64,000 bases of DNA, from positions 224,001 to 288,000 of the forward strand of contig JBFWNU010000007.1 of assembly GCA_050250895.1 (NCBI GenBank), written 5' to 3'. Both the position numbers and the translations under genes were made by a program. Source of the DNA: Vulcanimicrobiota bacterium (GTDB lineage: Bacteria > Vulcanimicrobiota > Xenobia > Xenobiales > JADMJV01). The notes beneath the pieces were generated by a model that saw only the letters and a list, made by a program, of their open reading frames with translations, had not been told where the DNA came from and searched no databases. The stretch's first letter is position 1, and every line of letters begins with the position of its first letter. Positions 8,218 through 59,765 of the stretch are shown here, in pieces.

Positions 8218-9495
8218 ATGCTCGATCCAAAACTCGTTCGCAACCAGCCGGAACAACTGGTGGAGGCTTTGCGCCGTCGCCGGATGGACACCGATGTCGT
8301 AGAGACCCTGCGCAAACTCGACGAAGAGCGTCGCGACCTGATTCAGAAGGCCGACGAACTCAAGCAGCAGCGCAATGTCGTTTCCAAGGAACTGGGTGAC
8401 CGCAAGAAGGCCGGCGAAGACATCTCGGAGCAAGCCTCGCGTATGCGCGAGGTCGGCAACGAGATCAAGGCCATCGACGCCCGTCGCACCGAAGCCGAGG
8501 CAGAGTTTACCTCGATTCTCGAGCGTTTGCCGAACCTGCCCGACGCCAGTGTGCCCAGCGGTGAGTCGGCCGACGACAATGTCGAGGTTCGTCGCTGGGG
8601 AGAACCCAAAGTCTTTGATTTTGAGGCCAAGGCCCATTGGGACCTGGGCGAGGAACTGGCTATTCTCGACTTCAAGCAGGCTGCCAAGATTTCCGGCTCC
8701 CGTTTCTGGGTGTTGCGCGGCGCGGGGGCGCGGCTCGAGCGGGCGCTGATCACGTTCATGCTCGATCTTCATACCCGCGAGCACGGCTATACCGAGATTC
8801 TGGCCCCGGCTCTGGTGACCGGTAGCACCCTCTACGGCACCGGGCAACTGCCCAAGTTTGCCGACGAGTTGTTTCACTGCGAGGGCACCGACCTCTATCT
8901 GATCCCGACCTCCGAGGTGTCCATCACCAGCATTCACGGCGGAGACATTCTCGAGAAAGACTCGCTGCCGCTTCATTACACCGGTTTTAGCCCCTGTTTT
9001 CGGGCCGAGGCGGGCGCGGCCGGCAAGGACACCCGGGGACTGGTTCGGGTGCACCAGTTCCACAAAGTGGAGATGATCAAGCTGACGCTCCCCGAGAACT
9101 CTTTTGACGAGCTCGAGGCCATGGTCAGAAATGCCGAAAAGGTGTTGCAGTTGCTAGAGATCCCGCATCGGGTGGTGGCCTTGTGCGACGCCGACATGGG
9201 ATTCGGAGCGGCCAAGACCTACGACATCGAGTTCTGGTCGCCCCCCCAGGATCGTTGGATCGAAATCTCTTCGTGCTCGAACTGCACCGACTTTCAGGCT
9301 CGCCGAGCCGCCATTCGTTACAAGCAGCCGGGCAACCCCACCGAGTTCGTACATACCCTGAACGGTTCGGGGCTGGCGGTCGGACGCACGATGGTGGCCA
9401 TTCTCGAGAATTACCAGCAGGCCGATGGATCGGTGGTGATCCCTGAGGCTCTTCGCCCCTACATGGGAGGTCAGGAAAAGCTGACACGTGGCTAG
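8218..9495 (+). CDS. serS: Seryl-tRNA synthetase
   Basis: N-terminal coiled coil; [39 protein letters not shown]. Confidence 0.98.
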
Positions 9496-10642
9496 GTCCC
9501 TGGGTGGACCGGTCGACGTGGCCGTGGTAGGGGCCGGTATCACGGGTCTCGCCACGGCCCTTTTCTTGCGCCGGTCTGGAGCTTCGGTGGCTGTCTTCGA
9601 GGCCGGCCCTGTAGCGATCGCCGGCTCGGCTCGCAACGCTGGAGTGGTGGTCCCGGGTCTCAACGAACATTACCACACCCTGGTAGAAGCTCTAGGTCGT
9701 GAGGTGGCCCGCCAATGGTGGGAATTTTCGGCTGCGGGCATCGCGGCCCTGGACGGATTGGCGCTGGAGGTGCAAGAACCCACCTGGCGCCGCGGGGCGG
9801 CTATGCTGTTGGCCGCCAATTCCGCCGAGTTGGCCGAAATGACCGGTTCCTCTCGCGAGTTGGCCGAGGACGGCTTCGAGTTTCGTCTGATGGGCGCCGG
9901 GGCCGCCAGCAACTATGTGCCGGTAGGGGAGTGTGAAGGGGCCTCGTTTTTCTCCGGCTCGGCCTGCTTCGAGGCGGCCGGCTTCCTGCGCCGCCTGGCT
10001 CAGACGTTTTTGGATGGGGGAGGGTCTCTCTTCGATTCGACCCCTGTGCTCGAAGTCAACGCGGGACAGGCCGTCGAGCTACTCACGCAGGCCGGCACTC
10101 TACAAGCTGAAGTGGTGGTTCTGGCGGCCGGTGCGCATTCGTTGGAACTGGTGGGGCACCGGCAGAGAGAGTTGATCTTTCCGTTGAGGGGCCAGGCCTT
10201 TGTGACCGCCCCGGTGCGCCAGGGCCCGCGCAGTTCGGTGGTGGCGGTCCTGGCGAATCGTGGTCACGAGGTCTATCGCAGCACTAGCAGTCAGGCAGTG
10301 GTAGTGAGCGGTATCAATCCCGGCTCCGGACCAAAAGAGAAGACGGACCAGGCAGAGGTCGATTTGATCTTTCAACAATATCTCGAGGAGGTCGCTGGTC
10401 GCCGGCTGTCCGAGATCGCCCTGGTCGAGGTTGGCCAACGCTGGGCCGAAGTGCACACCTTTTCGGTCGATGGTCTGCCGCTGATCGGGTCCTTGCCCGG
10501 CCAGCACAAAGTCTTCGTGGCGACAGGCTTTAGCAATCGTGCCTGGTCACTGGGAGTGGCCGCCGCCCAGGCTCTGGCCGAACAGCTCGCCGGCCAGAGC
10601 AACCGGCTGCCCCCTGGTTGCTCGCCTCGGCGATTTTTATGA
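9488..10642 (+). CDS. FAD-dependent oxidoreductase (DAO/PuuB-like)
   Basis: VVGAGITG Rossmann motif; GSARNAG; DGLPLIG. Confidence 0.85.
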
Positions 10643-12286
10643 TTCGGCCGGAGTGTTGGCGATGATTTCGCGAACGATGTTCTGGAAGTGGGGGAAGATC
10701 TCGGGATCGAAGTGGCCATCGGCCATCTCTTCCATGATCGAGAGGGCCTTTTCAGGAGTAAATCCTTTGGCCTTCCCGTCGGCGCCGAGGCGATAGACAC
10801 GCGGAGTGGTCAGCGCGCTCCAGACGTCAGCCACGGTCATGATCCGAGCCAGCAGCGGGATATTGGTGCCACTCAGGCCGTCGGGATAGCCCTGGCCGTT
10901 CCACTTTTCGTGATGGGCCCGGACGATGGCCACCAGGTCGTCCATGCCAGGGAGGTCGCGGAAGAAGTCGGCCGAGCGGGCGGCGTGGGTCTTCATCTCG
11001 TCGAATTCGGCGTCGGTGAGCTTGCGGGGAGCGTTGAGAATCGCCTCATCGATGAAGATCTTGCCGACGTCGTGTAGCTCGGAGCCGATCCGCATATACT
11101 CCATCTGCTCGCGGTCGAGGCCCATTCGCTCGGAAATCTTCAGAGCCATGTCGCGCACGTCCATGGAGTGACGGTAGGTATAATTGTCTTTGAGGTCAAG
11201 GGCGATGACCATCATCCGCATGACGTTGAGCTGGGCTTCGGCTCGCAATTCACGGTATTTACGAACGTTCTTTTCGAGAGCGGCTACCACCCGGGGATTG
11301 TACAGTGTCCCCGAACCTGCCTGGATCTTCTCGAGAGCGGCCTGCTCGTTTTGATTGCGATAAGCCGGGGCCCGCTCCATCAAGAAGTCGTCGGCGACTT
11401 TCAAAATCTGGGCCTCGAGGGGCATCAGGCGAAAATCGGTCTTGCCCAGGTGGGCGATGAAGCTGACGAGTTCGTGAAGATTTTGATTTGGCTCGAGAAT
11501 GGTGACGGCGTCTTCGAAGATCTTGCCCATCTTGGCCTGTTCTTCGTCATTGAGTTCGCCGCCCGTGCGCTCGCGAACCACTAACTCGCGGGGCAAAGCG
11601 ACTTTGCCGATCTCGTGCAAGTAACCGGCAAACAGAATCTCTTCAGAAACCATTGGGCACAGCATTTTGCTCATCTCGCGGGCGAGTTGGCCAGTTTCTT
11701 TGCAATGCTCGACTTGCGATTGACCCCCGGCTGCCTCGTTGAGTTTCATCAACAGATCGAGATAGGAGTAGTCGAGCGCCAGCGAGCGGTTGGAGAGGAA
11801 CTTGCCACGGGCTTCCTGAGTGAAGCCGACCGCTTCTAGCAAAGACACTCGCTCTGAGATGAGGCGGTTCATCTTTTCGGCAAGCTCTGGGATGCGGCGC
11901 ATCAGCACGGTGAAGTCGTCGCGCATGAGCACCAGGGTGCTGACCTGGTTGACCGCTTTGACGGTGGCCGAACGAGGTTGATCGATGACCAGCGCCATCT
12001 CGCCAAAGCCTTCACCGGGGCCGAGCTCAGATAGCACCAACTCGGCTTCGGACTCGGGATCCTGGCGAATCACCCGCACATGGCCCGACCGGATAATGTA
12101 AAAACAGTCGCCCATTTCGCCCTCGGATACGATCACTTCGTCTGGCTTGAAGTTTTTGGCGATGAGCTTTTGGGCGATCGACTCGATAACGCTGGGCGTG
12201 AGCGAGTAGAACAGCGAATTCGAAGCAACAAATTCGGGGATGGTCGACTTCGGAGTCAGCGTGCTGTGGTCGGACATGATAGACAT
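10637..12286 (-). CDS. cNMP-binding domain + degenerate HD domain + HD-GYP phosphodiesterase
   Basis: FGEMAL...PRSATV; LHEIGK; LHDVGK; HHEKWNGQGYPDGL. Confidence 0.9.
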   Translation of the reverse strand: MSIMSDHSTLTPKSTIPEFVASNSLFYSLTPSVIESIAQKLIAKNFKPDEVIVSEGEMGDCFYIIRSGHVRVIRQDPESEAELVLSELGPGEGFGEMALVIDQPRSATVKAVNQVSTLVLMRDDFTVLMRRIPELAEKMNRLISERVSLLEAVGFTQEARGKFLSNRSLALDYSYLDLLMKLNEAAGGQSQVEHCKETGQLAREMSKMLCPMVSEEILFAGYLHEIGKVALPRELVVRERTGGELNDEEQAKMGKIFEDAVTILEPNQNLHELVSFIAHLGKTDFRLMPLEAQILKVADDFLMERAPAYRNQNEQAALEKIQAGSGTLYNPRVVAALEKNVRKYRELRAEAQLNVMRMMVIALDLKDNYTYRHSMDVRDMALKISERMGLDREQMEYMRIGSELHDVGKIFIDEAILNAPRKLTDAEFDEMKTHAARSADFFRDLPGMDDLVAIVRAHHEKWNGQGYPDGLSGTNIPLLARIMTVADVWSALTTPRVYRLGADGKAKGFTPEKALSIMEEMADGHFDPEIFPHFQNIVREIIANTPAES

Positions 12287-12289
12287 CGG

Positions 12290-14317
12290 CTAGGTATTTG
12301 ATCCCTCTCGGTTTATCACCTGTTCAACGAGCGGGTCGAGTTCAATCAGACCCTTCTTCTCCATTTCCCCATGCAGCACCGCGAAAACCTTAAGTGGCTC
12401 TTTTTTGCCCTTCACGAAGATGTCGTCGAGCTCTTCGAAGAGCGCTCCGTCGCCGGCCAGGCGGCGGGTGCTCTCGGTAACCAGCACCGGAGCGTTGTAT
12501 TCCTTGGATTTCCCCTGGACTCGGGCCGCAGCGTTGGTGGGGTCGCCGATGGCCACCAATTGCTTGCGGCGAGTCGTGCCCATAAAGCCAAAAGAGATAG
12601 GGCCAGTGCAGATTCCGATACCGGTTTCGGGAACGTGACGGCCGCTTTCAGCCCACACCTTCCGCATCGCCTCCAGCGTCACGATCATTTCGGCGCCAGC
12701 CAGGCAAGCGGCGGCGGCATGGTTGGGCTGGGACTCGGGCACCAACCCGAAGACCACCATTTGGGCGTCGCCCTGATAGTCGAAGACCAGCCCCCCACGG
12801 CGTTCGAAGATGTGGCCCACCGCTCCGAAGTAGTCGTTGAGCGTGTCCAATACCGTGACAGCGTCGAGCTGCTCGGCGAACGTGGTGTAGCTGCGCAAGT
12901 CACTAAAGAGGATCGTAAGTTCGCGGGCTTCGCCTCCCAGCTTGATTCCCTGAGCCAACAACTTGTCGGGCTCGACCACCGGGCAAACCTGCTGGATGAG
13001 GTCGAGAAATTCTTTGCGGTCGCGCTGAAAGTGGAGCACGGTGGCCACCAGTTGGACGAGAACGACGCCGGTGGCGGGCGCAAAATAAGGCAGCATTGTG
13101 CCGCCGGTCGCCCAGTTGGCGCCGGTATAGGCCACGTAGTTGCCGTAGCTCATGACGCCCAGAGTCAGTGCCGAGAAGGCGGCCCCCGAGCCATGGGAGG
13201 TGCTTCCATCGATCAGTGCCACCAGCAACGGCAGCCCGAGTAAGAGAAAGACCACCCCGCCCACTCCGATACGTCGGATCGGGTTCTTCATAAACAGATT
13301 GAGCAGCAGGTTGGTCTGAACCTCGGGCCCGCTCATCATGCCCAGGATGGTGTGGGTTCGGTCCGTGCCGGCCGTGGCCGAGACCCCGACCAGGGCGATG
13401 AAGTCAGAAGGGAAAGCGTCGTTCTCGGATACTTGGAGCAGGTCCGCCAGGCTGAGCACCGGGATGAGCTTCTTGAGGCTTTGAGCCTGACGGCTGTCGG
13501 TGCCGGCGATGTTGACCAATTCTGAGGTTCCCAGCTGGTCCGGCGACTCGGTCGGGACGTCGGCCGACATCCCCTCGGCGGCATAGTTGACGTTGAGGGA
13601 ATGAAGAGTCAGTTCATACTGTTTTCCGGGAAAGCGGGTATGGACTGGGTCGAGCTTGAGCGATTGCACCACCTGCTCGGGGGTTTGGTCGGTATAGTGG
13701 GCATAGGCCACGGTCATCAAGGAGTAATAGACCTGACCTTCACTCTCGACCCGAACCAGCACGTCGGCCGACTCAGGTGACCAGCTGTTGACAAAGCCAA
13801 GGCGTCCCTCGGCCCGGTTCGGGTCCATCAGTTCGGGTGGGGGCTGATGCTTCTCGAGATGGGTCCCTTCAAAGTCTAGAGCCATGCCGACCACCACTTT
13901 GGGGTCATTGAGGGTTTCGGTCAGGAGTCGATCTTGTTCGGGCTTGCCGCTGGGCTCGAGAAAGAGCAAGTCGAAGGCGATGGTTTTGGCGCCTGCCTGC
14001 TTGAGTTTGCGGGTTACTTCGGTATAGATGCCTCGAGGCAGGGGATAGGTTAGATTCAGCTGCTCCAGGCTGGCGTCGTCGACCAGCACCAACACGATCT
14101 TGTCAGCGAGTTCGGTCGGCACCTTCATGTCCTCTAGCCAGCGGCGGGCCCAGACCTCATAAAGCCGCTGGTCGAGGCGACCGAATACCTGGCCGGCCCG
14201 TTGGTTGACCTCACCCTGGTTGATGGCCAGCAGAATAACCCCCACCACGACAGCAACACCGACCAGGACGAGTCGGTGTTGCTTTTTGAGGCTATTCGTG
14301 AACAGTCGTCGCAGCAA
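12290..14317 (-). CDS. CHASE2-domain class III nucleotide cyclase
   Basis: IVLVLVDDASL, IAFDLLF and MSGPEVQ (CHASE2); three TM segments; ILFSDLRSYT, QGDA, GDPTNAAAR, VKGK. Confidence 0.9.
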   Translation of the reverse strand: MLRRLFTNSLKKQHRLVLVGVAVVVGVILLAINQGEVNQRAGQVFGRLDQRLYEVWARRWLEDMKVPTELADKIVLVLVDDASLEQLNLTYPLPRGIYTEVTRKLKQAGAKTIAFDLLFLEPSGKPEQDRLLTETLNDPKVVVGMALDFEGTHLEKHQPPPELMDPNRAEGRLGFVNSWSPESADVLVRVESEGQVYYSLMTVAYAHYTDQTPEQVVQSLKLDPVHTRFPGKQYELTLHSLNVNYAAEGMSADVPTESPDQLGTSELVNIAGTDSRQAQSLKKLIPVLSLADLLQVSENDAFPSDFIALVGVSATAGTDRTHTILGMMSGPEVQTNLLLNLFMKNPIRRIGVGGVVFLLLGLPLLVALIDGSTSHGSGAAFSALTLGVMSYGNYVAYTGANWATGGTMLPYFAPATGVVLVQLVATVLHFQRDRKEFLDLIQQVCPVVEPDKLLAQGIKLGGEARELTILFSDLRSYTTFAEQLDAVTVLDTLNDYFGAVGHIFERRGGLVFDYQGDAQMVVFGLVPESQPNHAAAACLAGAEMIVTLEAMRKVWAESGRHVPETGIGICTGPISFGFMGTTRRKQLVAIGDPTNAAARVQGKSKEYNAPVLVTESTRRLAGDGALFEELDDIFVKGKKEPLKVFAVLHGEMEKKGLIELDPLVEQVINREGSNT

Positions 14318-14332: not shown

Positions 14333-15232
14333 TTAGTTGTTCGGGCCGATCGGCAGGGCCCTGGGCGAAGGGGGAGAGTAGGGAGACGAACTTCCACCCG
14401 GGATGTTGATCAGGACCTCGACGGTGCCGGTCTGGCCGCTGCCGTTAGGCAGCAGGATCTGGTCTTGCCCCTGGACCAGGGTCGAGTTGACCTCGTTGTG
14501 AAAGAACACGTAGGTGCCCTTCTCGGTGGTCTTCTCGTCAGGCTCGGGGGTCAACTCGGCCGGGATCAGACCATCGTTAGGAGATGGCATGACGGTGACG
14601 CCAGAGTTGCCGATGATGGCGCGCTCGCCGGGCATCAGGATGGTGGGGGGCGAGTTGCCGGTTTGCACACCCACGGTGCCTTCGAACACCTGGCAGATGG
14701 TCTGGGGACCGCCTTGAGCGAGTCCTTCTTCGAAGCCAGGCAGAACGGCCACGGGACCAAGTTTAGCGGCCGTGTCGTCGGTGAGGCCGGTCGGACTGTA
14801 GAGCACTACGTAGTCGGTGCCGCGAGCAGCCAGTACGGCGTTGGGCGTTTGCACTTCAAAGTTGCGCTCGCCGCGCAAGAAGCGCGACAGGCGGGCCCGG
14901 ATGCCACCCTTCTGGTCAGACATCTTGACCCGCATGCGGCCGGTGCGAACATCGAACTCGGTTAGGGTAATGTCGGTCTCGGGACCCATCGCGATAACCG
15001 CGCCGTCGCTGGTCTTCACCTGACCGATCGAGTCTTTGAGCGTGCGAATACGGTCCTGGCCGTCGCGCAGCAGACGATTCGACCAAACGGTGATCCAGCT
15101 GTCAGAATTGGCAAACTTGGTTTGCACTTGACCCTTCACTTTGATGACCAGTTTCCACTCGTCGGCGGCCTGGCCGGCGGTCGCGAAGACCGTAGCTAAT
15201 AGTAAAGCAGCGCATAGAAAGGTTTTTCGCAC
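14333..15232 (-). CDS. Secreted FecR-domain protein
   Basis: Signal peptide; DRIRT; FEVQTPNAVLAARGTDY; VFEGTVGV. Confidence 0.85.
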   Translation of the reverse strand: MRKTFLCAALLLATVFATAGQAADEWKLVIKVKGQVQTKFANSDSWITVWSNRLLRDGQDRIRTLKDSIGQVKTSDGAVIAMGPETDITLTEFDVRTGRMRVKMSDQKGGIRARLSRFLRGERNFEVQTPNAVLAARGTDYVVLYSPTGLTDDTAAKLGPVAVLPGFEEGLAQGGPQTICQVFEGTVGVQTGNSPPTILMPGERAIIGNSGVTVMPSPNDGLIPAELTPEPDEKTTEKGTYVFFHNEVNSTLVQGQDQILLPNGSGQTGTVEVLINIPGGSSSPYSPPSPRALPIGPNN

Positions 15233-15397: not shown

Positions 15398-15985
15398 TTA
15401 GCCGTTGGGGAGTTTGCGAATCACTCCGACCACCCGTCCCAATATGCGGGGGTCTCGCTCTCCAGCCGGGGGGCGATTTCCATTCGAGTCTATCCTTTGT
15501 AGGATGACCGATTCTCCGTCGCGACGCAGGACCATATCCCCCTCCGCAATTTCCAGGTTGCGGTTGACGATTACCAGATCGCCAGGAACGATGGCCTCCT
15601 GTCTATATGTTTCTTCGACAGGGAAGAGGAAAGACTCTTTGCTGCCCGCTAGTTCGAGTGGCAAAGAGATGGTTTTTTGGGGAGAATGATTCTCCCCAGC
15701 AGTGGGTGCCCCCACTGGCAGGTCCACAAGACGCGCCCTTGAGCCCTTAGGCCCGTCCAGAAGCTCAATGCTTCTGGGCTTGGACGGGTTTCTGCGTAAG
15801 TACCCTTTGGTCTCGAGACTTCGTAAGTGACTGTGAACAGTTGAACTTGACGAAAGCCCCACCGCTTCGCCGATCTCTCGAATCGAAGGCGGAAAACCTC
15901 TGGCCTCCACGGATTCGCGTATGAACTCCAGGATCTGCTGTTGCCTTCGGCTTAAGCGAGATTTACTCTGAGTAGATCCTGGCAT
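15398..15985 (-). CDS. lexA: LexA-family repressor with degenerate S24 peptidase domain
   Basis: RQQQIL, GFPPSIREIGEAVGLSSSSTVHSHL, PRSIE, ILGRVVGVIR; SD AGGAGG. Confidence 0.85.
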   Translation of the reverse strand: MPGSTQSKSRLSRRQQQILEFIRESVEARGFPPSIREIGEAVGLSSSSTVHSHLRSLETKGYLRRNPSKPRSIELLDGPKGSRARLVDLPVGAPTAGENHSPQKTISLPLELAGSKESFLFPVEETYRQEAIVPGDLVIVNRNLEIAEGDMVLRRDGESVILQRIDSNGNRPPAGERDPRILGRVVGVIRKLPNG

Positions 15986-16026
15986 TACGCAGTTATCCTC
16001 CTGTGATAATGGGCTGCAGTTCCCGA

Positions 16027-16056
16027 AGTATATCATGGTGACCTGCCGCCACGCAA
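16027..16056 (-). promoter_or_regulatory. Sigma70-type promoter of lexA
   Basis: Minus strand TTGCGT-N18-TATACT with extended -10 TG. Confidence 0.55.
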
Positions 16057-16232: not shown

Positions 16233-17045
16233 TTATCGCGTTTTTTTGCCGCGCTTCTTGCCTGTGCCAGACTCGCGGTGCTGGCTGAGGGCCTCCCGCA
16301 TGGTGTCCAGTGAGCGGGCCTGCAGGCGCGAGACATGCATCTGCGAGATGTTGAGAACCCGGGCAACCTCACTTTGAGAGCGGTTCTCGAAAAAGCGTAG
16401 GTACATCAGCAAGCGCTCCCGGGGCGGTAGGCAAGAGAAGGCTCGATGGAGAGCGAGGCGGTCCTCGACTTGCTCGAGCTGGAAGTCGGAGCGACCCAGA
16501 TAGTCAAGCAGGCTCGAGGTTTTACGGCTATCGTCGGCGTCGAGTTCGCTGTCGATTGACAAAAGGTTGTAGGACTGGCCCAACTCCTGGGCCTCGAGCA
16601 CGTCTTCGGCGGTGACGTCGAGCTTCTTGGCGATCTCGTCGGCGGTAGGCACTCTGCCCAGCGACGAGGTAAGCTCTTCCGTGGTTTTGGCTACCGACGC
16701 ATTGAACTCTTGCAGGCGACGGGGAACCTTGATGGCCCAGCCCTTATCCCGAAAGTGGCGCTTGATTTCCCCAACGATAGTGGGGGTCGCGTAGGTGGTG
16801 AACTCGGTCCCGCGGTCGGGATCGAACCGCTCGATGGCCTTGATCAAGCCAAGGCAGCCCACCTGGATGAGGTCTTCGAGGTTCTCGCCTCGATTGCCAA
16901 ACTTGCCCGCCAGATAGCGAACCAGGTTGAGATGCTGGGTTACCAGTTCGTCTTTGACGGCGGGGTCGCGATGGCGGGAATACTCGGCCAGCAGGCGCCG
17001 GGCACGCTCTCGGTCCCAGCGACCTCCGCTGCTATTCTCAGCCAT
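16233..17045 (-). CDS. SigB/SigF/SigG family RNA polymerase sigma factor
   Basis: EDLIQVGCLGLIKAIERFD, YATPTIVGEIKRHFRD, SQMHVSRL. Confidence 0.95.
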   Translation of the reverse strand: MAENSSGGRWDRERARRLLAEYSRHRDPAVKDELVTQHLNLVRYLAGKFGNRGENLEDLIQVGCLGLIKAIERFDPDRGTEFTTYATPTIVGEIKRHFRDKGWAIKVPRRLQEFNASVAKTTEELTSSLGRVPTADEIAKKLDVTAEDVLEAQELGQSYNLLSIDSELDADDSRKTSSLLDYLGRSDFQLEQVEDRLALHRAFSCLPPRERLLMYLRFFENRSQSEVARVLNISQMHVSRLQARSLDTMREALSQHRESGTGKKRGKKTR

Positions 17046-17430
17046 TGTCATTCCTATGGAAATACTTGACCATGCGGAGGCCGATGGCCGAATCGAGTTC
17101 GCTCACTTCATCCATCAGGGCATGAATGAGGAATAAGCCGATCTCGGACCATTCGGCTTCGCCCGAGGCCTCGGTCACCGTCTCGCAATGGACAGTGACC
17201 ACTAGCGACTCGACGCCAATGGACCAGTCGACACAGATCGGCGATTCAGGACCCGCTCGCTCGAGAAGACGAGCGCAGGCTTCGGTGACCGCCAACTTGA
17301 GGTCGTCTGCCTCTTCGACATTGAGTTCAAGGCGGTGGGCGATGCCTGCGGCCGCCAGCCGCACGACCCCCACATACTCGGGCTGGCTGGGAATAGAAAG
17401 CCGTATTTCCGAAGTTTGAGAGTCGTTCAC
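17038..17430 (-). CDS. RsbW-like anti-sigma factor (degenerate HATPase)
   Basis: IPSQPEYVGVVRL, DLKLAVTEAC, GLFLIHALMDEV; lies between the STAS and sigma genes. Confidence 0.85.
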   Translation of the reverse strand: MNDSQTSEIRLSIPSQPEYVGVVRLAAAGIAHRLELNVEEADDLKLAVTEACARLLERAGPESPICVDWSIGVESLVVTVHCETVTEASGEAEWSEIGLFLIHALMDEVSELDSAIGLRMVKYFHRNDNG

Positions 17431-41614: not shown

Positions 41615-42900
41615 TTCGGATCCGATGCGAGGATTGCGGGGCCTGGCACTCGGGCGAACTTGCTTTTTGCCCTTATTGCGACACGATGCATGCCGGAGGA
41701 TTGTCGGGCAACGAATCGATCGCGGTTTACGAGAAGGCGACCAGCCGCTTCGCCAGCCAATTGGTCGGCTCGCTGTTGTACCGTCGCAATCTGGCCCAAT
41801 GGTTGGACTGGGCCGGCAGTCTCGTGGGCGATGCCATGGGTTTGCTGCTCGAACCGGCCTGGATTCCTTGTTGGTACGCCGAGCGCACTTCGTTCGCGCC
41901 GGTTGAAGTAGACAAGTTGTTCGGGCTGGATTTTTCACGGCTGGCCTCGGTGGACCGCCGGTTCGAGCGGCTGGGCTTCGGCCGCAGCCTCGATTTCACC
42001 ATCCCTGAAGAGCACCAACAGTGTCTTTATCGACTCTATCTCCTGGCCGGCGAATCCACCTGGGCGCTGGTGCGTATTCCCAGTCCGTCGGCTCTGCGAG
42101 CCGGCCGATGGGAGCTGGGCTTTCATAGTCGCTTGAAGACCGGCGCAGCCCTGGTGACTCAGCCGATGGCCCTGGCTGGTCCCACCCCCGAGGGCAAGGT
42201 CGAGTTTCTTTTCGGCTCACCGCGTCCCGAGGACCTCTACGGACTGCATCGGCAGGAGACGTTTCGGCGCGGCGGGGCGATGCCGGTGCGGGGTCGGCCA
42301 CGGCCAGGAACGTTCTTTCGGCACTACGCTCTGGTGACCAGACTCACCATCTCGCATCGAGTGGGCTTGGGTCTGCTCAAACGCGGCAAGGGTCCGGCCG
42401 TGGCTCGCCACTCGCTGGTCTCGCCCTGGGCTGGCGCCATCGGCAGCTGCGCCCATTGCCTGTGTCCCGTCACCGAAAACGAAGGCGTGCAGGTTCGTCG
42501 CGGATTGCTCTGTGCCCAGTGCTGGGAGGAGCCTCGCAGCCAGCCGCGCCGCGCTTTTATCCCGCTGTGGCGGCGTGGCCTGGCCGGCCTGACCGAGGTC
42601 GGGCTCAGCCTGCTTGCGGCCGGGCTCCTGGCACTGGCCTGGAAGGGCCGGCTCGATTGGACCTGCGCCGTTTTGCTCTGGCCGATGTGCAAGCTTGGCT
42701 TCGATTTGTTTCCTCTTGGCAAGTGGTTACTGGGCTTGCGCCTTCAGGACGAGCAAGGTGGCTCGGTCTCGGTGTTTCGTCGCCTGGTGCGCGCGGTCGC
42801 CTGGTGGGCCTCTTTTGGGCTGGGCTGGCTGCCGGTGCTCTGGCAAGAAACGGCCTGGCACGATCGGGTGGCCGGCACGGGGGTTGGCCCACGCCCGTGA
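41611..42900 (+). CDS. Zn-ribbon protein with C-terminal RDD domain
   Basis: CxxC pairs; LWRRGLA, LGKWLLGLRL, WHDRVAGT. Confidence 0.75.
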   Translation: MIRIRCEDCGAWHSGELAFCPYCDTMHAGGLSGNESIAVYEKATSRFASQLVGSLLYRRNLAQWLDWAGSLVGDAMGLLLEPAWIPCWYAERTSFAPVEVDKLFGLDFSRLASVDRRFERLGFGRSLDFTIPEEHQQCLYRLYLLAGESTWALVRIPSPSALRAGRWELGFHSRLKTGAALVTQPMALAGPTPEGKVEFLFGSPRPEDLYGLHRQETFRRGGAMPVRGRPRPGTFFRHYALVTRLTISHRVGLGLLKRGKGPAVARHSLVSPWAGAIGSCAHCLCPVTENEGVQVRRGLLCAQCWEEPRSQPRRAFIPLWRRGLAGLTEVGLSLLAAGLLALAWKGRLDWTCAVLLWPMCKLGFDLFPLGKWLLGLRLQDEQGGSVSVFRRLVRAVAWWASFGLGWLPVLWQETAWHDRVAGTGVGPRP

Positions 42901-44300
42901 AGGGTCTCTCCACCAGGGTCTGGGCCCTGATGCCGCTGGCGGTTGCCCTCAACCTGGTGATGAGCAACCTGGTGGCACTGTTGAAGCCGTTGCCGCTCTA
43001 TCTCGACTCGGTCGGAACGGTGCTGGTGGGGGCGCTGTGCGGCCCCGGGGCGGGCGCCATCACCGGGATTGCCTCGATCGCCGTGGTGGCTCTGACGGCG
43101 CCCACCTTCTTTCCATTTATGCTCACGGCCGCGGTGGTGGGGGCCCTGTCGGGTTGGCTGGCCCGACGGGGCATTTTCGCCACCCCCGGGCTAGCTGCGG
43201 CCGGTGGTCTGTTTCTGGGAGTCGCGGCAGCCCTGGTCTCGGCCCCCATCTCGGCCTATCTCTTCGGGGGCGTGACCGGAGGTGGAACGGACCTGCTGGT
43301 AGCCTATTTCCGCGGCTCCGGGCGTTCGGCCCTGGAGTCGAGCCTGGCCCAGGGTTTGATTTCGGACCCGCTCGATAAGCTGGTTAGCCTGGTGCTGGTA
43401 CAGCTGCTGTTGGCGGGTCTTCCCGAGTCCATCCGCAACGGCTTTCCCGAAGGTCATCGATTGGCCATCGTCCGGCGGCCCCGACGCGCGCGCCGAGGGA
43501 CCGGGGCCAGTGGAGCCCGACCCCGCGAGAACTGGGGCGCCAGGGTAGCTGGCGAGCAACGGCAACAGGCAGCCGGCTGGCTGCAGGAACTGACTCCGCT
43601 GACCAAATTGCTGGGGCTCTTCGTGGCGGTGGTAATGGCCATTCGCTTTGTGCCGTTCGAGCACGGCACCATCGCTTCGCCTTTGCCGCTGCTCGCCTTT
43701 GGCCTTTTCGGGCTCGCCCTCTCGAGCGGGGTGGGCACGGAAGTTGGCAAGGTGATCGGCTGGTTTTGGGCTCCCCTGGCCCTTTCGATGACCCTCATCA
43801 ACGGCTTGTTCGGACCGACTCCGCGGTTAGTCTGGCGGGGCCTTGCCTATAGCCCCGACGGTCTAGCGGCGGGGTTGGGTCTGGCTCTGCGAGTGCTGGT
43901 CATCTTGCTGGCGGTGGCCCTGATCCTGGCCACCACCCAGCCGGCCGCGCTGGCCGCGGGCCTGGAAGAAGTGGGTTTGCCGCCCAGGTTCTGCTATGTG
44001 GTGCTGGCGGCCCTTTCGCTGGCTCCGGGCATGGCCCGGCGTCTGGATGAAGTGCGCTGTGCTCAGGCTGCCCGTGGTCTTTACCTGGGCGGTCCGGCTC
44101 TGGCCAGGCTCAAGAGCCTGGTTCCCTTGCTGGGCCCAGCCATGCTCAGCGTGTTGGCCGAAACCGAGCAGCGGGCCATGGCCCTCGAGGCGCGAGGCTT
44201 CGGGGCCAGCCGCCGGCGCACCCGCATGAAGGCTGGTTCACGGGGCGAGTGGCCCCTGCGTCTGGCTCTTTTGGCGGTGGGGGTGTGGGCGCTGTGCTAA
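42897..44300 (+). CDS. ECF transporter fused S component + T component
   Basis: LPLYLDSVGT..GP (S component); AQAARG and ALEARGF (EcfT X-R-X motifs). Confidence 0.85.
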   Translation: MKGLSTRVWALMPLAVALNLVMSNLVALLKPLPLYLDSVGTVLVGALCGPGAGAITGIASIAVVALTAPTFFPFMLTAAVVGALSGWLARRGIFATPGLAAAGGLFLGVAAALVSAPISAYLFGGVTGGGTDLLVAYFRGSGRSALESSLAQGLISDPLDKLVSLVLVQLLLAGLPESIRNGFPEGHRLAIVRRPRRARRGTGASGARPRENWGARVAGEQRQQAAGWLQELTPLTKLLGLFVAVVMAIRFVPFEHGTIASPLPLLAFGLFGLALSSGVGTEVGKVIGWFWAPLALSMTLINGLFGPTPRLVWRGLAYSPDGLAAGLGLALRVLVILLAVALILATTQPAALAAGLEEVGLPPRFCYVVLAALSLAPGMARRLDEVRCAQAARGLYLGGPALARLKSLVPLLGPAMLSVLAETEQRAMALEARGFGASRRRTRMKAGSRGEWPLRLALLAVGVWALC

Positions 44301-45109
44301 TCGAGATGAGCGGCTTGACCTTCACCCGCCAGGGCCGGGAGCACCCCAGTCTCTCCGGGGTGACGGCCGCCCTCGAAGCGCCCATGGGTGTCGGTCTGGT
44401 AGGAGCGGCCGGCGCGGGCAAGTCCACTCTGCTCAAAGTGCTGGCCGGTTTCGTTCCGGGGTTGGTGCCCGGGCGGCTCGAGGGAGAGCTTCGCCTGGGC
44501 TCGCGCCCTCTGAGCGAGTATCGTGCGGCCGAGCGGACCCGATTGATCAGCCTGGTCTTCTCGGACCCGGCTCGACAACTGTCGGGCGCCTGCCCGACCG
44601 TGCGCGACGAGTTGGCCTGGGGTCTCGAAAATTTGGCTGTCGAGCCGGCCCACATTCGGGACCGGGTCGAGCAGGTCCTGACCATGACCGGTCTGACTCA
44701 CCTGGCCGAGCGCTCCCCGCTGGCTCTGTCGGGAGGTCAGCAGCAACGGGTGGCCATGGCTTCGGTGTTGGCGCTCCAACCTGGCATTTTGCTGTTGGAT
44801 GAGCCCGTCTCGGCGCTGGACCCGGGGGGAGTGGCCGAAGTCACTGCCCTGGCCCGCCAGCTGGTGGCCGAGGGAACAGCCGTCATCTGGGCCACTCCAC
44901 GCCTGGCCGAGGTCGCCTGGTGTGAACATTGGTGGGTGCTCGAGGGGGGGCGTTTGACGGTGTGCGCACAGCCGAGCGTGGAAACGGCCGCCGGGGCGTT
45001 GGCCGCTCCCTGGACTCGCCTGGCTCGCGCGGCCGGCTGGAAGAAGGCTCTGCCGATTAGCCAGGACCAAGCTCTAGAAGGGTTTCGACAGCGTGCGCAT
45101 CGGCCTTGA
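44294..45109 (+). CDS. ECF transporter ATPase A1
   Basis: GAAGAGKST, TVRDELAWGLEN, LSGGQQQR, LLDEP. Confidence 0.88.
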   Translation: MLIEMSGLTFTRQGREHPSLSGVTAALEAPMGVGLVGAAGAGKSTLLKVLAGFVPGLVPGRLEGELRLGSRPLSEYRAAERTRLISLVFSDPARQLSGACPTVRDELAWGLENLAVEPAHIRDRVEQVLTMTGLTHLAERSPLALSGGQQQRVAMASVLALQPGILLLDEPVSALDPGGVAEVTALARQLVAEGTAVIWATPRLAEVAWCEHWWVLEGGRLTVCAQPSVETAAGALAAPWTRLARAAGWKKALPISQDQALEGFRQRAHRP

Positions 45110-45899
45110 ACAGGTGGTTTTCGAGTATGGTCCGATCCGGGCGCTCGATGGCGTGGATCTGGTGCTCGAGACCGGCAGTTCGGTCTGCCTGCTGGGAGCG
45201 AACGGCTCGGGCAAGACCACGCTGGCCCGCCTGCTGAACGGTTTGTTGGTGCCTACCCAGGGAAGGGTGCTGGTAGGAGATTGGGATACGCGCGAGGTGG
45301 CCGTCAGTTCTCTGGCTGGGCGGGTTGGCTATCTGTTTCAGGACCCCCGGCGTCAGGTCTTTCTCGACACCGTTCGGGAAGAGGTCGCCTTCGGTCCGGC
45401 CAATCTTGGGCTGAAGGTCGACGAGGTCGAGCGGCGGTGCGCGCGTTGGCTCGAGCGACTGGACCTGGCCAGCCTGGCTGACCTGCATCCCTACGATTTG
45501 GGAGAGAGTCAGCTGAGGCGGTTAGCGCTGGCTTCGGTGCTGGCGCTCGAGTCGGATTTTTTAGTCTTGGATGAACCCACCGCCAGCGTCGATGCCCGTG
45601 ACTGGCAGCTTCTGTCAGAGTTGGTCGGGGAATTGGTGGCGGCCGGTAGGGGAGTGGTGGTGATTACCCACGATATGGAGTTTGCGGCCGAGCACTTTGG
45701 ACGAGCCATCGTGCTCGAAGCCGGCCAGGTCCGCCTGGACGGACCGGTCGAACAGGTATTCGCCGGACCTTTGACGGCAGCGCTCGAAGCTCCGGTAGCC
45801 ACTCGATTCAGCCTGGCACTGGGCTTTGACCCTCCCGCTGTCAGGCAGGAGACTTTCCTGGGCTACCTGAAATCCGAGGCTGGTGAGAGACTTCCGTAG
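45093..45899 (+). CDS. ECF transporter ATPase A2
   Basis: GANGSGKTT, FQDP, EEVAFGP, LDEPT, ITHD. Confidence 0.9.
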   Translation: MRIGLEQVVFEYGPIRALDGVDLVLETGSSVCLLGANGSGKTTLARLLNGLLVPTQGRVLVGDWDTREVAVSSLAGRVGYLFQDPRRQVFLDTVREEVAFGPANLGLKVDEVERRCARWLERLDLASLADLHPYDLGESQLRRLALASVLALESDFLVLDEPTASVDARDWQLLSELVGELVAAGRGVVVITHDMEFAAEHFGRAIVLEAGQVRLDGPVEQVFAGPLTAALEAPVATRFSLALGFDPPAVRQETFLGYLKSEAGERLP

Positions 45900-46650
45900 G
45901 CACAAGGTTCTTTCCTCACGGGGGACCAGGCTGGCTGTTTTCGAATCCGGCCACAGAGAGCGACCGACCGTCTTCTTTGTGCACGGGGCCGCCGGTTCCA
46001 CCAGCAACTGGCATTATCAACTCCACGACCTCAAGTCTGACTATCATGTGGTCTCGGTCGACCTGCGCGGGCACGGACATTCCAGCTGGCCCGGCCACTC
46101 GAGCCTCGAAGAGTTCCACGGTGACATCGACGCCGTGTTGTCGGGGCTCGAACTCGACTGTCCGATGGTGGTGGTGGCTCACTCTTTCGGCGGCTGTCTG
46201 GCCACCCACCTGGCCGAGCGCCGGCCCGACCTGGTCAAGGGCCTGGCCCTTTTCGATACCGCCGGCGAGATTCCCAAAGGGGTCATGTATCGTTTACTCT
46301 TGCTGTTCTCGACCAAAGCCGACCTGATGCGCAAACAGTTTCCGTGGATGCTGGCCGCCGACGCCAAGGTGATCCAATCGGTGCTGACCTTTCCGATCAA
46401 GGAATGGGACTGCTGGGATGTCTATCCGCGCTTGCAGATGCCCGTCTTTGTAGCCGCTGGAGCCATGGATGTCTTGATTCCGGCGCGCCTCTCGAGACGG
46501 GTGGCCGAGTTGGCGCCCCGTTCGCGTCTCGAAGTGGTGGCCGGGGCCGGGCACGTGCTGATGATGGAGAAACCCGAACTGGTGAACGGCTGGCTGCGCG
46601 AGTTCGTGAGCCAATGCCTGGGGTCAGAGAGCCAACAACGACCCGCCTAA
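45883..46650 (+). CDS. Alpha/beta hydrolase
   Basis: VHG, DLRGHG, AHSFGG, AGH. Confidence 0.9.
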   Translation: MRDFRRHKVLSSRGTRLAVFESGHRERPTVFFVHGAAGSTSNWHYQLHDLKSDYHVVSVDLRGHGHSSWPGHSSLEEFHGDIDAVLSGLELDCPMVVVAHSFGGCLATHLAERRPDLVKGLALFDTAGEIPKGVMYRLLLLFSTKADLMRKQFPWMLAADAKVIQSVLTFPIKEWDCWDVYPRLQMPVFVAAGAMDVLIPARLSRRVAELAPRSRLEVVAGAGHVLMMEKPELVNGWLREFVSQCLGSESQQRPA

Positions 46651-55312: not shown

Positions 55313-58300
55313 ATGCCGAATCGTATTGCTCGTCCCGACGCTCGCGTCGTTACCTATACAAAGAAGAGAAATCTCGCCACCCGTCTGCCAGCTGAGCAAA
55401 GCTTGCAAGTGGCTCCGCCTAAAGTCAGCAGTGGAGGGTCATGGGGACCAGAAGTCCAGCTGCCCCAGGTGCTCGAAGCCGAGGCTCCCGAGAGCAAGAA
55501 CCGAACCCACAAGTTGGCGGCCGCGGCCGCTCTGGCCCTGACCGCCGTCGGAGCCGGAGCAGGTCTGGTAGGCTCCGCGTCGCCGGCGTATGCCGAGAGC
55601 GTGGCCCTGAGCGCCAGCCCGGCCTCGGCCTCGTTCTTGCAGACCGTGCTGGCCCAGCGTGATACCACCCCCGTCAGGGTCAACAGCGCCCAGGAAGTGG
55701 TCGACCAGTTTCAGGCCCAGCGACAACTTTACGTCCAGGGAGACCCCCTTCCGGCGGACGTCATGGGCGAGCTGTCCGAGCAGTTGGCCAGGCATCCGAA
55801 TATGTATGTGGTGTTGGTGGACTACGCCAGCAACTTCGAAGACTATGACTTCACCGTGGCCACCGGCATCGGCAACAGTGACTCCTTCGCCTCGGTGCGC
55901 AACCCCGTGACCGGCGAAAAAGAGGGAGTCGTGTTCACCGTCATGTTCGACAGCAACGACGGCCGTAAGGTCTTTATGCGCTCCGAGGAGTTGCCCGACC
56001 GGCTCGGCGTGGGCGAAGAGAATTTCGCTGACGAGTATGGCAACCCCGAACGACTGTTGCGAACCTTCTTGAGGGCCCGCGACCGGGGCGAGAACATGGC
56101 TGGCATGCTGGGCTCGGTGTTTGCCGAGATCAACACCACCATCAAGACTCACACCGACCAGGTCTTGACCCAGGCTACCAGCGAGGTCGGCCGGGCTGAA
56201 AGGGACCTGCCCTCGCTACGCCAGCGCTACGAAAAGCAGAACAAGGACTATCCTCAAGCCGTCGCTCTACCGGACTTTGCTGCCTGGCAGCAACAGGTCG
56301 GCGCCGCTCGCCAGGCGCTGGATTCGGGCGACCCTCAGGGGGCCATCAACCTGATCCGGCCGGTCCTGGCCAATCTTGATGGCAGTGCCGCTTTCATCAA
56401 CACTTTCGAGCACAACCTGGGCCAGGCCCAGCAAGTGCTGGCCAGGGCCGAGCAGGCCGTGGCTCGAGGCCAACAGCAGGCCGCCAACTTCCGGAAGGAG
56501 TTTGGCGAAGGCGGGCAGCTGGGCAGCCCTGACCTCGATGGTTGGAAGGCCGCCCTCGAACAGGTCAAAGCGCAGACCGTCAAAGGTGACTTCGCGGGGG
56601 CGCTGGCCACCTCGAACAGCCTGGTGGCCAGCCTCGACGCCTATGGGCAGGCTACCGGTCGCTTTACGCAGGCCCAATCCATGAAAGAGGCGGTCTCCCG
56701 GCAGATTGCCGACCTCGAAAAGGCGCTGAAGAAGGCGCCTGATAACGGCCACACCGAGCAAGCTCGAGAAGACCTGGCGGCCGCAAAGGCAGCTTTCGAG
56801 CAGTATCAAGCCGACACTCGGGGCAAGTCAGGGGACCCGCTGACGGCCATCGAATCGGCCCAGTCATCGGCCACCGCGGGGCTCAGGCAGATCGACGAGG
56901 CTCACCATCAGGCCAACGTGATCCGAAACACTATCATCGGAGTGGGCACGGCGCTGACCCTCGCCACCGTGGCCGCCGGCTTGATCGCCAACGCCAGGGC
57001 CCGGACCAGAAAGAAGGAAGCGCTGACCGCTCTAAGCCAGGCCGAAGCCGACATCGGACGGCGCTCGAAAGCGCTCATCGAGTTGATGGAGCAGGCCGAC
57101 GTCAAGAATGTCTCGAGCTATGCTGGCGAGACCCAGAAGCTGGCTCAGCAAGTGATCGAGAGCGTCACTGACTCTTTGACCTTGATGGGCGGGGCTGAGA
57201 AGTTTCTGGCCGAGTCACGTCAGCTCATCGAGCCGAATTCGCCGCGCAATCTATTTACCAGCGGCAATTTCCACCAGGCCATCGGGCTATTGACCGACCC
57301 CGAGCAGCGCCTGCCGTTCTCCTTCGAAGACAGCGCCCGGGCCGTCATGGAAAAGGGCAGCCGGGCCGAGTCGTGGCGGGAAGAACTCGAGCGACGCGGC
57401 GCCTCTCGCGAGTTCGAGAAATCACTGTTCGAGGTGCTCGGCGAGGCTGACAAAGCGGGCGGCCAGGCCAAAAAGGTTCTGGCTGAAATCGACAACTTCA
57501 AGACCGGGGCCCAGACGGGTCTGGCCAAGCTCGAAACCACAGGCGGCGAAGTCTCGAAGAGGGCCGAAGAGCTCGAGAAAGAGGCTGAGCAGGACAAGCT
57601 GTTCCCGCTTCCTTCGGTCCGCGAGGACCTGTTGGCTCGGGTGCTGGACTCGGAGCGAGGATTGTTGCCGCGCGGCCGAGCCCTGGAGCCATCGGACCCC
57701 GTTCGAGTGGTCCACGAGTTTGTCGAGCCCGGCGCCCAGATGCTCGAGCAGGCCACCAAGATTCTCAACGCGGGTCAGGCGTTGCGCGGTACTCTGGGCG
57801 ACTCGACCAGGCGCCTTCATGACGCTTTCGGAAAAGCGGAAATATCCACCGAATGGGCCGATACCTCGCTGGCTCAACTGGCCAGCCGACTCGACGATAC
57901 GGCCGACAAAGCACCTCGCGTCGAGCCTGAGAAAGAGATCGAACAGGTTCGCCAACAGGGATTCGAGGTGAATCGCCAGTTCGAACAGGCCCTGCGTCTG
58001 GAGTTCCAGCGCCAGAAGGTCGAGGACACGCAGGTGGGTCAGGTCGAGGCCAAGATTGCCGAGACCCGCCGGCAGATGGCGGACCAGTTGCACGAGCTGG
58101 GTGTATTTCAGCAGGGCACCGCCGAGGGGGTGTTGCGCGAAGAAGGCTCGGATCCCGACCGGTTGCTCGACGATTCGAAGGCTCAGCTCGGTTCGGTCAA
58201 GCAACTTTTGGGCAAAGGCAAGGTCGCAGAGGCCGATAGAGCCCTCGAGAAGGTGGCTGGCAATTCGACGGGCGCCGAGGCCATTCTCTCGGACGCCAAG

Positions 58301-59713: not shown

Positions 59714-59721
59714 ACGAAATG

Positions 59722-59752
59722 AAAAAGGGGCGCTTCTCGAGAAGCGCCCCTT
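59722..59752 (-). terminator. Intrinsic terminator between convergent genes
   Basis: Perfect 28-bp palindrome AAGGGGCGCTTCTCGAGAAGCGCCCCTT with a T-run on the minus strand. Confidence 0.8.
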
Positions 59753-59765
59753 CGGCTGGCGACAA

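Follow-up and report, generated by a model that had tools for sequence, protein, structure and literature searches.

A CHASE2 receptor cyclase with an Asp-type substrate pocket in a conserved three-gene module of Vulcanimicrobiota

Locus and receptor architecture

The stretch of DNA analysed here, called the window throughout, spans 64,000 nucleotides of contig JBFWNU010000007.1 (positions 224,001 to 288,000) from a Vulcanimicrobiota bacterium. It carries on its minus strand a gene for a predicted membrane receptor, P0001, which joins a CHASE2 sensor to a class III nucleotidyl cyclase, followed by a gene for P0002, a putative cyclic nucleoside monophosphate (cNMP)-binding HD-GYP phosphodiesterase. 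Both residues that normally specify the nucleobase are replaced in P0001. The identity of its product is not readable from sequence, and the candidates are weighed below from the pocket, the relatives and the partner protein. The cyclase gene comprises the following features.

12290..14317, minus strand: P0001, CHASE2 receptor and class III nucleotidyl cyclase, 675 amino acids, TTG start (open reading frame and translation, Pfam)
13271..14215, minus strand: CHASE2 extracytoplasmic sensor domain, residues 35-349 (Pfam PF05226, E 3.1e-27)
12392..12925, minus strand: class III cyclase catalytic domain, residues 465-642 (Pfam PF00211 Guanylate_cyc, E 2.7e-17)
12779..12781, minus strand: codon gac, Asp513, at the position of the substrate-specifying Lys of adenylyl cyclases (AC) or Glu of guanylyl cyclases (GC) (phmmer alignment)
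12554..12556, minus strand: codon gtg, Val588, at the position of the substrate-specifying Asp/Thr (AC) or Cys/Gly (GC) (phmmer alignment)

The PF00211 profile scores 63.4 bits against a cut-off of 21.9, placing P0001 among the class III cyclases, and the PF05226 score of 96.2 bits, together with flanking hydropathy peaks, identifies a CHASE2 receptor. Because these peaks fall at residues 16-34, 350-368 and 412-430, P0001 is predicted to be a membrane receptor, and they fit a topology with CHASE2 outside and the cyclase inside the membrane. No NCBIfam family was found for the P0001 cyclase. An AlphaFold2 model of the cyclase domain, built from 59 aligned relatives, reached a mean predicted local distance difference test score (pLDDT) of 94.2. 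With this model, Foldseek ranked Cya2 of Synechocystis (2W01) first (E 7.8e-19, template modelling (TM) score 0.77, 31% identity), followed by CyaB (3R5G) and CyaC; Cya2 is also the best sequence match of P0001 in the PDB (phmmer, 6e-24).

Catalytic residues and nucleobase pocket

On the minus strand, the motifs of P0001 read ILFSD (D473), FDYQGD (D513, D517), LVAIGD (V588) and TNAAAR (N595, R599). In phmmer alignments to solved cyclases, D473 and D517 stand opposite the metal-binding Asp residues and N595 and R599 opposite the transition-state pair, and all four catalytic residues lie in a single chain, the arrangement of the homodimeric type. D513 lies opposite the Glu of the guanylyl cyclase Cya2 and the Lys of CyaB (3R5G) and OaPAC, while V588 lies opposite the Gly of Cya2 and the Thr of CyaB and OaPAC. 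A sequence-only reading of the stretch had described a cyclase at 12400-12930 with the metal Asp (FSD, QGD) and the Asn/Arg pair (NAAAR) intact, with Lys changed to Asp in FDYQGD and with Thr/Asp changed to Val in LVAIGD; the alignments bear out each of these residue assignments, and the interval agrees with the Pfam domain at 12392-12925.

The pair of a canonical adenylyl cyclase, Lys first and Asp or Thr second, is absent, P0001 reading Asp513/Val588. Published guanylyl cyclases carry Glu first and Cys, Ser, Thr, His, Ala or Gly second (PMC4215837); P0001 has Asp rather than Glu at the first position and a Val that is off this list at the second, and clade relatives with Ala, Cys, Ser or Thr at 588 match only the second half of the pair. 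The Cya2 type, with a basic residue nine before the Asn and a Tyr three after it, is not found either, these positions being Gln586 and Ala598. P0001 is clearly not a canonical Lys plus Asp/Thr adenylyl cyclase, and just as clearly not a degenerate form of one.

In the model, strand beta2 covers residues 509-515 and strand beta5 residues 585-590. On strand periodicity, from which the face assignments are drawn rather than from coordinate measurement, D513 and Q515 should share one face, as should Q586 and V588, with K585 facing the opposite way. The rebuilt pocket predicted from the model consists of Asp513 and Gln515 on beta2 and, on beta5, of Gln586 with Val, Ala or Cys as a small apolar residue 588. 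The sequence-only reading had named another Lys in the purine pocket as one finding that would overturn it. Invariant K585 was considered as such a stand-in, and it is weakened as a candidate because beta5 runs from 585 to 590 and would turn it away from Q586 and V588.

Conservation and phylogeny of the pocket

A word-indexed search returned only six close relatives (38-92% identity), with D513 and V588 present in 6/6, while residue 513 is Lys (9) or Ser (1) in ten further CHASE2 cyclases of the same alignment. The segments FDYQGDAQMVVFG and VAIGDPTN are unchanged in 7/7 sequences (P0001 and its six orthologues), and in this seven-sequence alignment the blocks 511-524 and 588-595 are invariant at a mean column identity of 52%. 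Among 1.84 billion cluster representatives, searched exhaustively with HMMER, 333 proteins matched at E <= 1e-30; 209 cyclase domains in 190 of the best-match proteins were typed. Asp occupies position 513 in 66/209, accompanied at 588 by Ala (35), Val (20), Thr (7), Ser (3) or Cys (1), and the canonical Lys/Thr pair is found in 92/209. None of the typed Asp-type members with a single domain has lost either metal Asp, the Asn or the Arg.

A phylogeny was built with FastTree on 222 domains, after domains with more than 40 gaps over 188 columns were dropped and the host genome's own domains were added; the sample is biased toward matches of the P0001 query. The Asp types form one clade of 89 leaves with a Shimodaira-Hasegawa-like (SH-like) support of 0.974, 70 of the leaves being Asp-type and the nested remainder including Thr/Thr, Thr/Ser, Ser/Thr, Asn/Thr and Glu/Ser forms. 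The commonest combinations at 513-515-586-588 within the clade are D-Q-Q-V (21) and D-Q-Q-A (16). Most Asp-type domains have Gln at 515, and some have Met, Ile, Leu or Val; among domains outside the clade, the most frequent combinations carry Ile, Met or Val there. As judged from this conservation, the Asp/Val pocket is more than chance. A placement of the Asp clade as a sub-branch of the Cya2-like Glu/Gly cyclases was unsupported in this query-biased tree.

The description of the enzyme as rare needs qualification, given the share of Asp types among the best-match domains and a cyclase-domain match at E <= 1e-40 in 24/301 sampled genomes of the phylum; one family, sampled 207 times, had no match at that threshold. 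A scan of genome contigs gave 2 Asp-type loci and 78 with Lys at 513 among its best 80, but its motif patterns missed Asp-type genes later recovered by the phylum search, so that it carries little weight outside the phylum.

Tandem relatives

Several relatives of about 1000-1200 residues have the order CHASE2-cyclase-CHASE2-cyclase (P0058, P0063, P0064, P0067-P0070 and P0072, with Pfam run on P0058 and P0064), and the host genome, G000, holds one of its own, a 1155-residue open reading frame at C1:1373282-1375657 (L097/L102). In the first half, the first metal Asp is replaced by Glu, Asn, Ile or Met, while Asp513, Gln515, Ala588, the Asn and the Arg are kept; in the second half, both metal Asp residues are kept, position 513 is Thr, position 588 is Ser or Thr, and the Asn and Arg are gone. 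The C2 and C1 domains of mammalian adenylyl cyclases divide labour likewise, and by this analogy the partition shows the Asp/Ala pair to be located where the substrate is chosen. The complementary losses argue for selection on one working active site. Gln586 is retained in the metal-binding half and missing from the other, a distribution which suggests that it acts across the dimer interface, as Arg592 of the alpha1 subunit of soluble guanylyl cyclase (sGC) does.

The tandem relatives resemble mammalian membrane adenylyl cyclases in splitting the metal residues and the substrate and transition-state residues between two domains of one chain. They differ in that each half is preceded by CHASE2 rather than by a six-helix bundle, and P0001 itself differs in its predicted single-domain, homodimeric form.

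The three-gene module and its distribution

The module runs in the order FecR-like protein, cyclase, cNMP-binding HD-GYP phosphodiesterase. Its first gene ends fifteen bases upstream of the cyclase gene, and the start of P0002 lies 3 bp past the cyclase stop codon.

14333..15232, minus strand: FecR-domain protein, 299 amino acids, first gene of the module, with a signal-peptide-like N-terminus read by eye from the sequence rather than computed (Pfam FecR, residues 60-147, E 3.8e-9)

The FecR-like protein also has a weak NCBIfam match, far below the cut-off, to the Leptospira surface adhesin Lsa33 (E 1e-10).

The flanks of 20 related loci of the phylum were compared. In 11/20, the next gene downstream of the cyclase matches P0002 in all three parts. 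At two further loci (L144, L150) a contig end truncates the partner, of which only the cNMP-binding and middle parts were matched, so that the partner directly follows the cyclase in 13/20 in total, and also in locus L001. The sequence of L151 ends 9 bp past the cyclase; at L153 no partner match was found in the 859 bp available downstream, and at L156-L160, two of which are Thr/Thr types, the partner is absent. A FecR-like open reading frame stands directly upstream of the cyclase in 15/20 loci (one of them weak, E 5e-4) and in L002. The partner-linked cyclases (the 13 loci and L001) have D513 in 14/14 and Q586 in 14/14, with Val, Ala or Cys at 588 and Gln at 515 in all but one (Met). Identity to L001 is 83% for P0002, its gene there being syntenic, and 58% for the cyclase; by this comparison of sequences the partner is better conserved than the cyclase. 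The relatives, all metagenome-assembled, bear the source names Armatimonadetes/Armatimonadota, Candidatus Eremiobacterota, Candidatus Xenobia and 'Firmicutes bacterium'; the phylum is probably the one also called Eremiobacterota.

The partner protein P0002

The partner gene and its domains are located as follows.

10637..12286, minus strand: P0002, 549 amino acids, with cNMP-binding, degenerate HD-like and HD-GYP domains (Pfam)
11894..12157, minus strand: cNMP-binding domain, residues 44-131, with phosphate-binding cassette FGEMALVIDQPRSAT (Pfam PF00027, E 8.2e-22)
11834..11836, minus strand: codon of Glu151 in the C-helix of the cNMP-binding domain, opposite Ser128 of Escherichia coli CRP (MAFFT alignment)
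10697..11212, minus strand: HD-GYP catalytic domain, residues 359-530 (Pfam HD_5, E 3.1e-48)

Pfam assigns cNMP_binding to residues 44-131, HDOD to 167-237 and the best stretch of HD_5/HD to 359-530. With P0002 as query, 120 cluster representatives at 48-99% identity were listed, of which all except one have both cNMP-binding and HD_5 domains; the PDB matches of P0002 include structures of MloK1 and the cNMP domain of Bd1971 (E about 7e-14). The cNMP-binding domain scores 77.4 bits with PF00027, and G95, E96 and R105 are each kept in 120/120 aligned relatives. Its cassette reads PRSAT at residues 104-108, and at residue 106, the one after the cassette Arg, 97 of the 120 have Ser and 23 have Thr. 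Thr127 and Ser128 of CRP align with Leu150 and Glu151 of P0002, the spacing to the cassette Arg being 46 residues in both, without a gap. Residue 151 closes the almost unvarying motif RVSLL[E/D], 93 of the 120 relatives having Glu there and 27 Asp.

The output domain scores 164 bits with HD_5 and is predicted by profile and motifs alike to be an HD-GYP domain. Because H373, HD 405-406, H434, HH 458-459, GYP 466-468 and D487 are invariant in 121/121 family members, P0002 is very likely an active phosphodiesterase. Between sensor and output lies a further domain (window 11250-11840, residues about 150-345), a conserved degenerate HD domain that reads His-Glu-Ile-Gly-Lys, not His-Asp, in 121/121.

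Cyclic-nucleotide repertoire of the host genome

The 9.5-Mb genome G000, in which the window is C7:224001-288000, holds 30 PF00211 matches (loci L081-L110) and 24 cNMP-domain matches, numbers which suggest unusually rich cyclic-nucleotide signalling in a poorly known, uncultured phylum. The source is described as an uncultured soil-type bacterium. Typing of 24 genes gave Lys/Thr (2), Glu/Gly (3), Glu/Ser (1), Gln/Ala (3), Gln/Thr (1), Gln/Leu (2), Thr/Ala (2), Arg/Asn (1), Ser/Thr (1), Asp/Val (2), Asp/Thr (1) and Asp/Gly (3), besides one tandem Asp/Ala plus Thr/Ser gene and one partial domain.

The second Asp/Val CHASE2 cyclase, at C6:469915-472032 (L098, L136), is 58% identical to P0001 in the domain. 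Within 8 bp after it (locus C6:469915-472756) stands a gene for a 239-residue CRP/FNR-like regulator with the cassette PRSAT and a Thr at the position of CRP Ser128. At the orthologous locus of a sister genome (L002), a PhoD-like phosphatase lies downstream, and adjacency to a CRP-like regulator was not seen.

Proposed mechanism and product

In the proposed mechanism, CHASE2 would act as a periplasmic sensor controlling the cytoplasmic class III cyclase, with the co-encoded, secreted FecR-like protein probably taking part in that control. P0001 would be a catalytically competent, homodimeric, membrane-bound receptor cyclase, and its cyclic nucleotide would be read by the cNMP-binding domain of P0002, which in turn would switch the HD-GYP phosphodiesterase domain of the same protein. 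An outside signal would in this way be converted into a cyclic mononucleotide and then into a changed level of cyclic di-GMP (c-di-GMP) or a related dinucleotide. Catalysis, the homodimer, coupling to the partner, the direction of regulation and the nucleotide are all things that we infer. An active cyclase coupled to P0002 is likely; that the product is mainly cyclic GMP (cGMP), the most probable of the candidates, is put forward more tentatively, as a proposition somewhat short of even. The carboxylate of Asp513 would bind guanine at N1-H and N2-H2, the role of Glu in known guanylyl cyclases, and the invariant Glu/Asp151 of P0002 would take the guanine of cGMP in the same way.

Several observations favour cGMP. 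Asp513 is an acidic residue at the Lys position, opposite the Glu of Cya2, the top PDB match, and residue 588 is small and non-acidic. Lys-to-Glu changes in Ma1120 lower AC and raise GC activity (PMC4215837), and the guanylyl cyclase XC_0250 has Ala at one substrate-specifying position (PMC3770947). The cGMP receptor XC_0249 of Xanthomonas binds N1 and N2 of guanine through Glu146 of the opposing C-helix (PMC3770947, PMC11224242), and P0002 is acidic at the corresponding residue 151 in 120/120, a correspondence made through the CRP Ser128 position, at which PMC11224242 places Glu146, XC_0249 itself being outside the alignment. The Ser or Thr found after the cassette Arg in 120/120 relatives accords with the sequence-only reading, which had called the hydroxyl residue of PRSAT compatible with cGMP and not diagnostic of it.

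Other observations weigh against this product. All characterised guanylyl cyclases have Glu at the first position, with a side chain longer than that of Asp by one methylene. Gln586, nine residues before the Asn, replaces the Lys of Cya2 and of the host genome's own Glu/Gly cyclases; this position is held by Arg in eukaryotic guanylyl cyclases and by Gln in the C2 domain of mammalian adenylyl cyclases. In the FastTree phylogeny (222 domains, query-biased sample), the Asp clade and the Glu/Gly domains stand apart, and the host's second Asp/Val cyclase precedes a CRP-like regulator whose Thr at the Ser128 position is of the adenine type. An acidic residue in the C-helix might also act as acceptor for the amino group of adenine or cytosine. 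Ala598 takes the place of a Cya2 Tyr, three after the Asn, that is reported to raise GC activity, and Val is absent from the residues listed for the second position in the same source (PMC4215837). The Gln two residues before the second metal Asp determines CTP in the cytidylate cyclase EaPycC (PMC11224242), Gln515 being equated with it only through a shared spacing of 44 residues between the metal Asp residues. No assay of any member of the Asp clade was found in the literature.

The suggestion of a bacterial guanylate cyclase, or one with another nucleoside triphosphate preference, stays the leading, though putative, reading through the Cya2 match, the Asp of the tandem forms and the acidic residue 151 of P0002; an enzyme of the Cya2 type specifically is disfavoured by Gln586, Ala598, the tree placement and the paralogue's CRP-like neighbour.

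Alternative products

The first rival, which we think unlikely, is an adenylyl cyclase that reads adenine differently, making the module a c-di-GMP phosphodiesterase controlled by cyclic AMP (cAMP), like Bd1971 or Tlr0485. In that case Asp513 would be the acceptor for the N6 amino group, with a Gln (515 or 586) as the donor to N1, an arrangement no less doubtful than the reading to which it belongs. Gln586 matches mammalian C2 and not the Lys of Cya2, and the PRSAT cassette is close to that of the cAMP-binding domain of MloK1, which is among the PDB matches of P0002. The other Asp/Val paralogue adjoins the CRP-like regulator with its Thr, and the non-canonical bacterial class III cyclases that have been tested, Rv1900c and Rv0386, are, as far as is known, mainly adenylyl cyclases. 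The known enzymes of cNMP-to-c-di-GMP cross-talk also respond to cAMP (PMC8846402). Against a cAMP product stand the effect of an acidic residue at the Lys position in Ma1120 (PMC4215837), the loss of the adenine-reading Asp/Thr from position 588, where every module cyclase has Val, Ala or Cys, and residue 151 of P0002, which is always acidic and never Ser or Thr. Clade domains that regain Thr588 often change Asp513 and Gln515 too (four read Thr513-Ile515-Thr588), and such joint change of 513, 515 and 588 looks like a specificity switch away from the Asp type.

Less probable again is another cyclic nucleotide (the cyclic monophosphate of cytidine, uridine or inosine: cCMP, cUMP or cIMP) or deliberate promiscuity. 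The polar Asp513/Gln515 pair would have to reach a smaller base and the cNMP-binding domain of P0002 be tuned to the product, steps that we find improbable to the same degree. Residue 515 is hydrophobic (Ile, Met or Val) in the canonical cyclases sampled and Gln in most Asp types, a difference in keeping with a new base, but some Asp-type domains have Met, Ile, Leu or Val there, which suggests a residue that packs against the base and need not hydrogen-bond to it. EaPycC chooses its base through R142 and Q144, four and two residues before D146, its other metal Asp being Asp102 (PMC11224242); the metal-Asp spacing is 44 residues there as in P0001, an equivalence by spacing only, and the short Asp makes a pyrimidine harder to reach. 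The P0001 domain does match PycC profiles (PADLOC, E 8.7e-15), yet more weakly than it matches solved AC and GC structures, as expected of a common fold. Since the genome already holds Glu/Gly (3), Glu/Ser (1) and Lys/Thr (2) cyclases, a further nucleotide would add information and not redundancy; the context, however, is a phylum-wide housekeeping module with a CHASE2 sensor and no defence island, and to our knowledge no cellular cCMP or cUMP signalling is established outside phage defence. More doubtful still is the specific proposal that the Asp513/Gln515 pocket marks a housekeeping receptor-cyclase family whose cyclic nucleotide is neither cAMP nor cGMP but, for example, cCMP or cUMP, and is read by P0002 to set c-di-GMP; if true, it would be the first pyrimidine or non-canonical cyclic mononucleotide in ordinary environmental signalling rather than phage defence.

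Least likely is a weak or inactive cyclase domain serving as a nucleotide-binding or scaffolding output of the CHASE2 receptor, which the non-canonical substrate-specifying pair would allow and which would fit model enzymes in which changing these residues often cuts activity instead of converting it (PMC4215837), but the metal Asp residues, Asn and Arg are intact in all Asp-type single-domain members typed, the tandem halves partition exactly the catalytic residues, as is only expected if one active site is selected for, and a gene for a cNMP receptor is fixed downstream.

Comparison with known systems

Cya2, itself CHASE2-linked, shares with P0001 an acidic residue at the Lys position, a small non-acidic second residue and the presence of all catalytic residues in one chain, and it is the best match in both sequence and fold. 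The two differ in Glu against Asp, Gly against Val, Lys against Gln586 and the GC-enhancing Tyr against Ala598 (PMC4215837).

By analogy, P0001 and P0002 would work most like XC_0250 and XC_0249 of Xanthomonas campestris, in which cGMP controls c-di-GMP synthesis. In both systems a class III cyclase is linked to a gene that joins a cNMP-binding domain to a c-di-GMP enzyme, and the guanine-reading Glu of the C-helix of XC_0249 has a counterpart in Glu151 at the aligned position (PMC3770947). XC_0249 differs from P0002 in being a cNMP-binding diguanylate cyclase, with a GGDEF synthase rather than an HD-GYP phosphodiesterase as output, and in having Asn before the Glu (Asn145-Glu146) where P0002 has Leu150. 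XC_0250 has Leu and Ala in place of the Asn and Arg that P0001 keeps, and P0001, unlike the Xanthomonas system, is a predicted CHASE2 membrane receptor.

Phosphodiesterases of c-di-GMP that are activated by cyclic mononucleotides include Bd1971 of Bdellovibrio, a cNMP-binding EAL protein, and Tlr0485 of Thermosynechococcus, a GAF HD-GYP protein (PMC8846402). P0002 differs from both in combining cNMP-binding, degenerate HD-like and HD-GYP domains and in being fixed beside a presumed cyclase, a combination of domains not found among the characterised sensors in the available text of that review (PMC8846402). No paper was found on an Asp-type class III cyclase or a cNMP-binding HD-GYP protein, although a census table with the pair may exist in supplements or subscription journals.

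The Pycsar (PycC) cyclases and the cGMP-making Pucsar cyclases share the cyclase fold with P0001. The specificity of Pycsar cyclases is set by residues just before the second metal Asp (PMC11224242), and Pycsar and Pucsar effectors bear cNMP-binding domains (10.64898/2026.08.12.744502). P0001, by contrast, is a predicted CHASE2 receptor in a phylum-conserved module and is closer to housekeeping AC and GC enzymes. A Pycsar or Pucsar defence system is ruled out by context, because synteny of the FecR/CHASE2/HD-GYP module extends over many genomes of the phylum; the partner is an HD-GYP protein, no TIR or transmembrane killing effector is present, and the PycC matches are at the level of the fold only.

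Neighbouring genes and composition

Upstream of the module lie a LexA repressor (15398-16036, minus strand) and a sigma-70-family factor recognised by eye (16233-17051, minus strand). On the other side, seryl-tRNA synthetase (8218-9495, plus strand) and a DAO-family FAD oxidoreductase (9488-10642, plus strand) are both syntenic in L001. Elsewhere in the window, strong AT skew occurs at 42001-46000 and 56001-60000 (-0.29 and -0.19, then +0.17 and +0.22, in 2-kb bins), with GC content up to 0.67.

Significance

P0001 belongs to the class III cyclase superfamily and to the CHASE2 receptors; its Asp-type pocket and the architecture of the partner were not found described in the literature searched. 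Bacterial adenylyl and guanylyl cyclases are not yet reliably separable by sequence, and very few bacterial guanylyl cyclases have been proven. Against this background the locus offers a clean test case, a well-delimited clade whose non-canonical pocket (Asp, Gln, Gln and a small apolar residue) does not vary, in which the tandem forms provide a natural experiment showing which half-site bears the pocket residues, and P0002 next door provides an independently measurable ligand preference and a readable HD-GYP output. Whichever product P0001 makes, the specificity code of class III cyclases would gain a rule, and the module would document a cNMP-to-c-di-GMP relay of an uncharacterised domain type.

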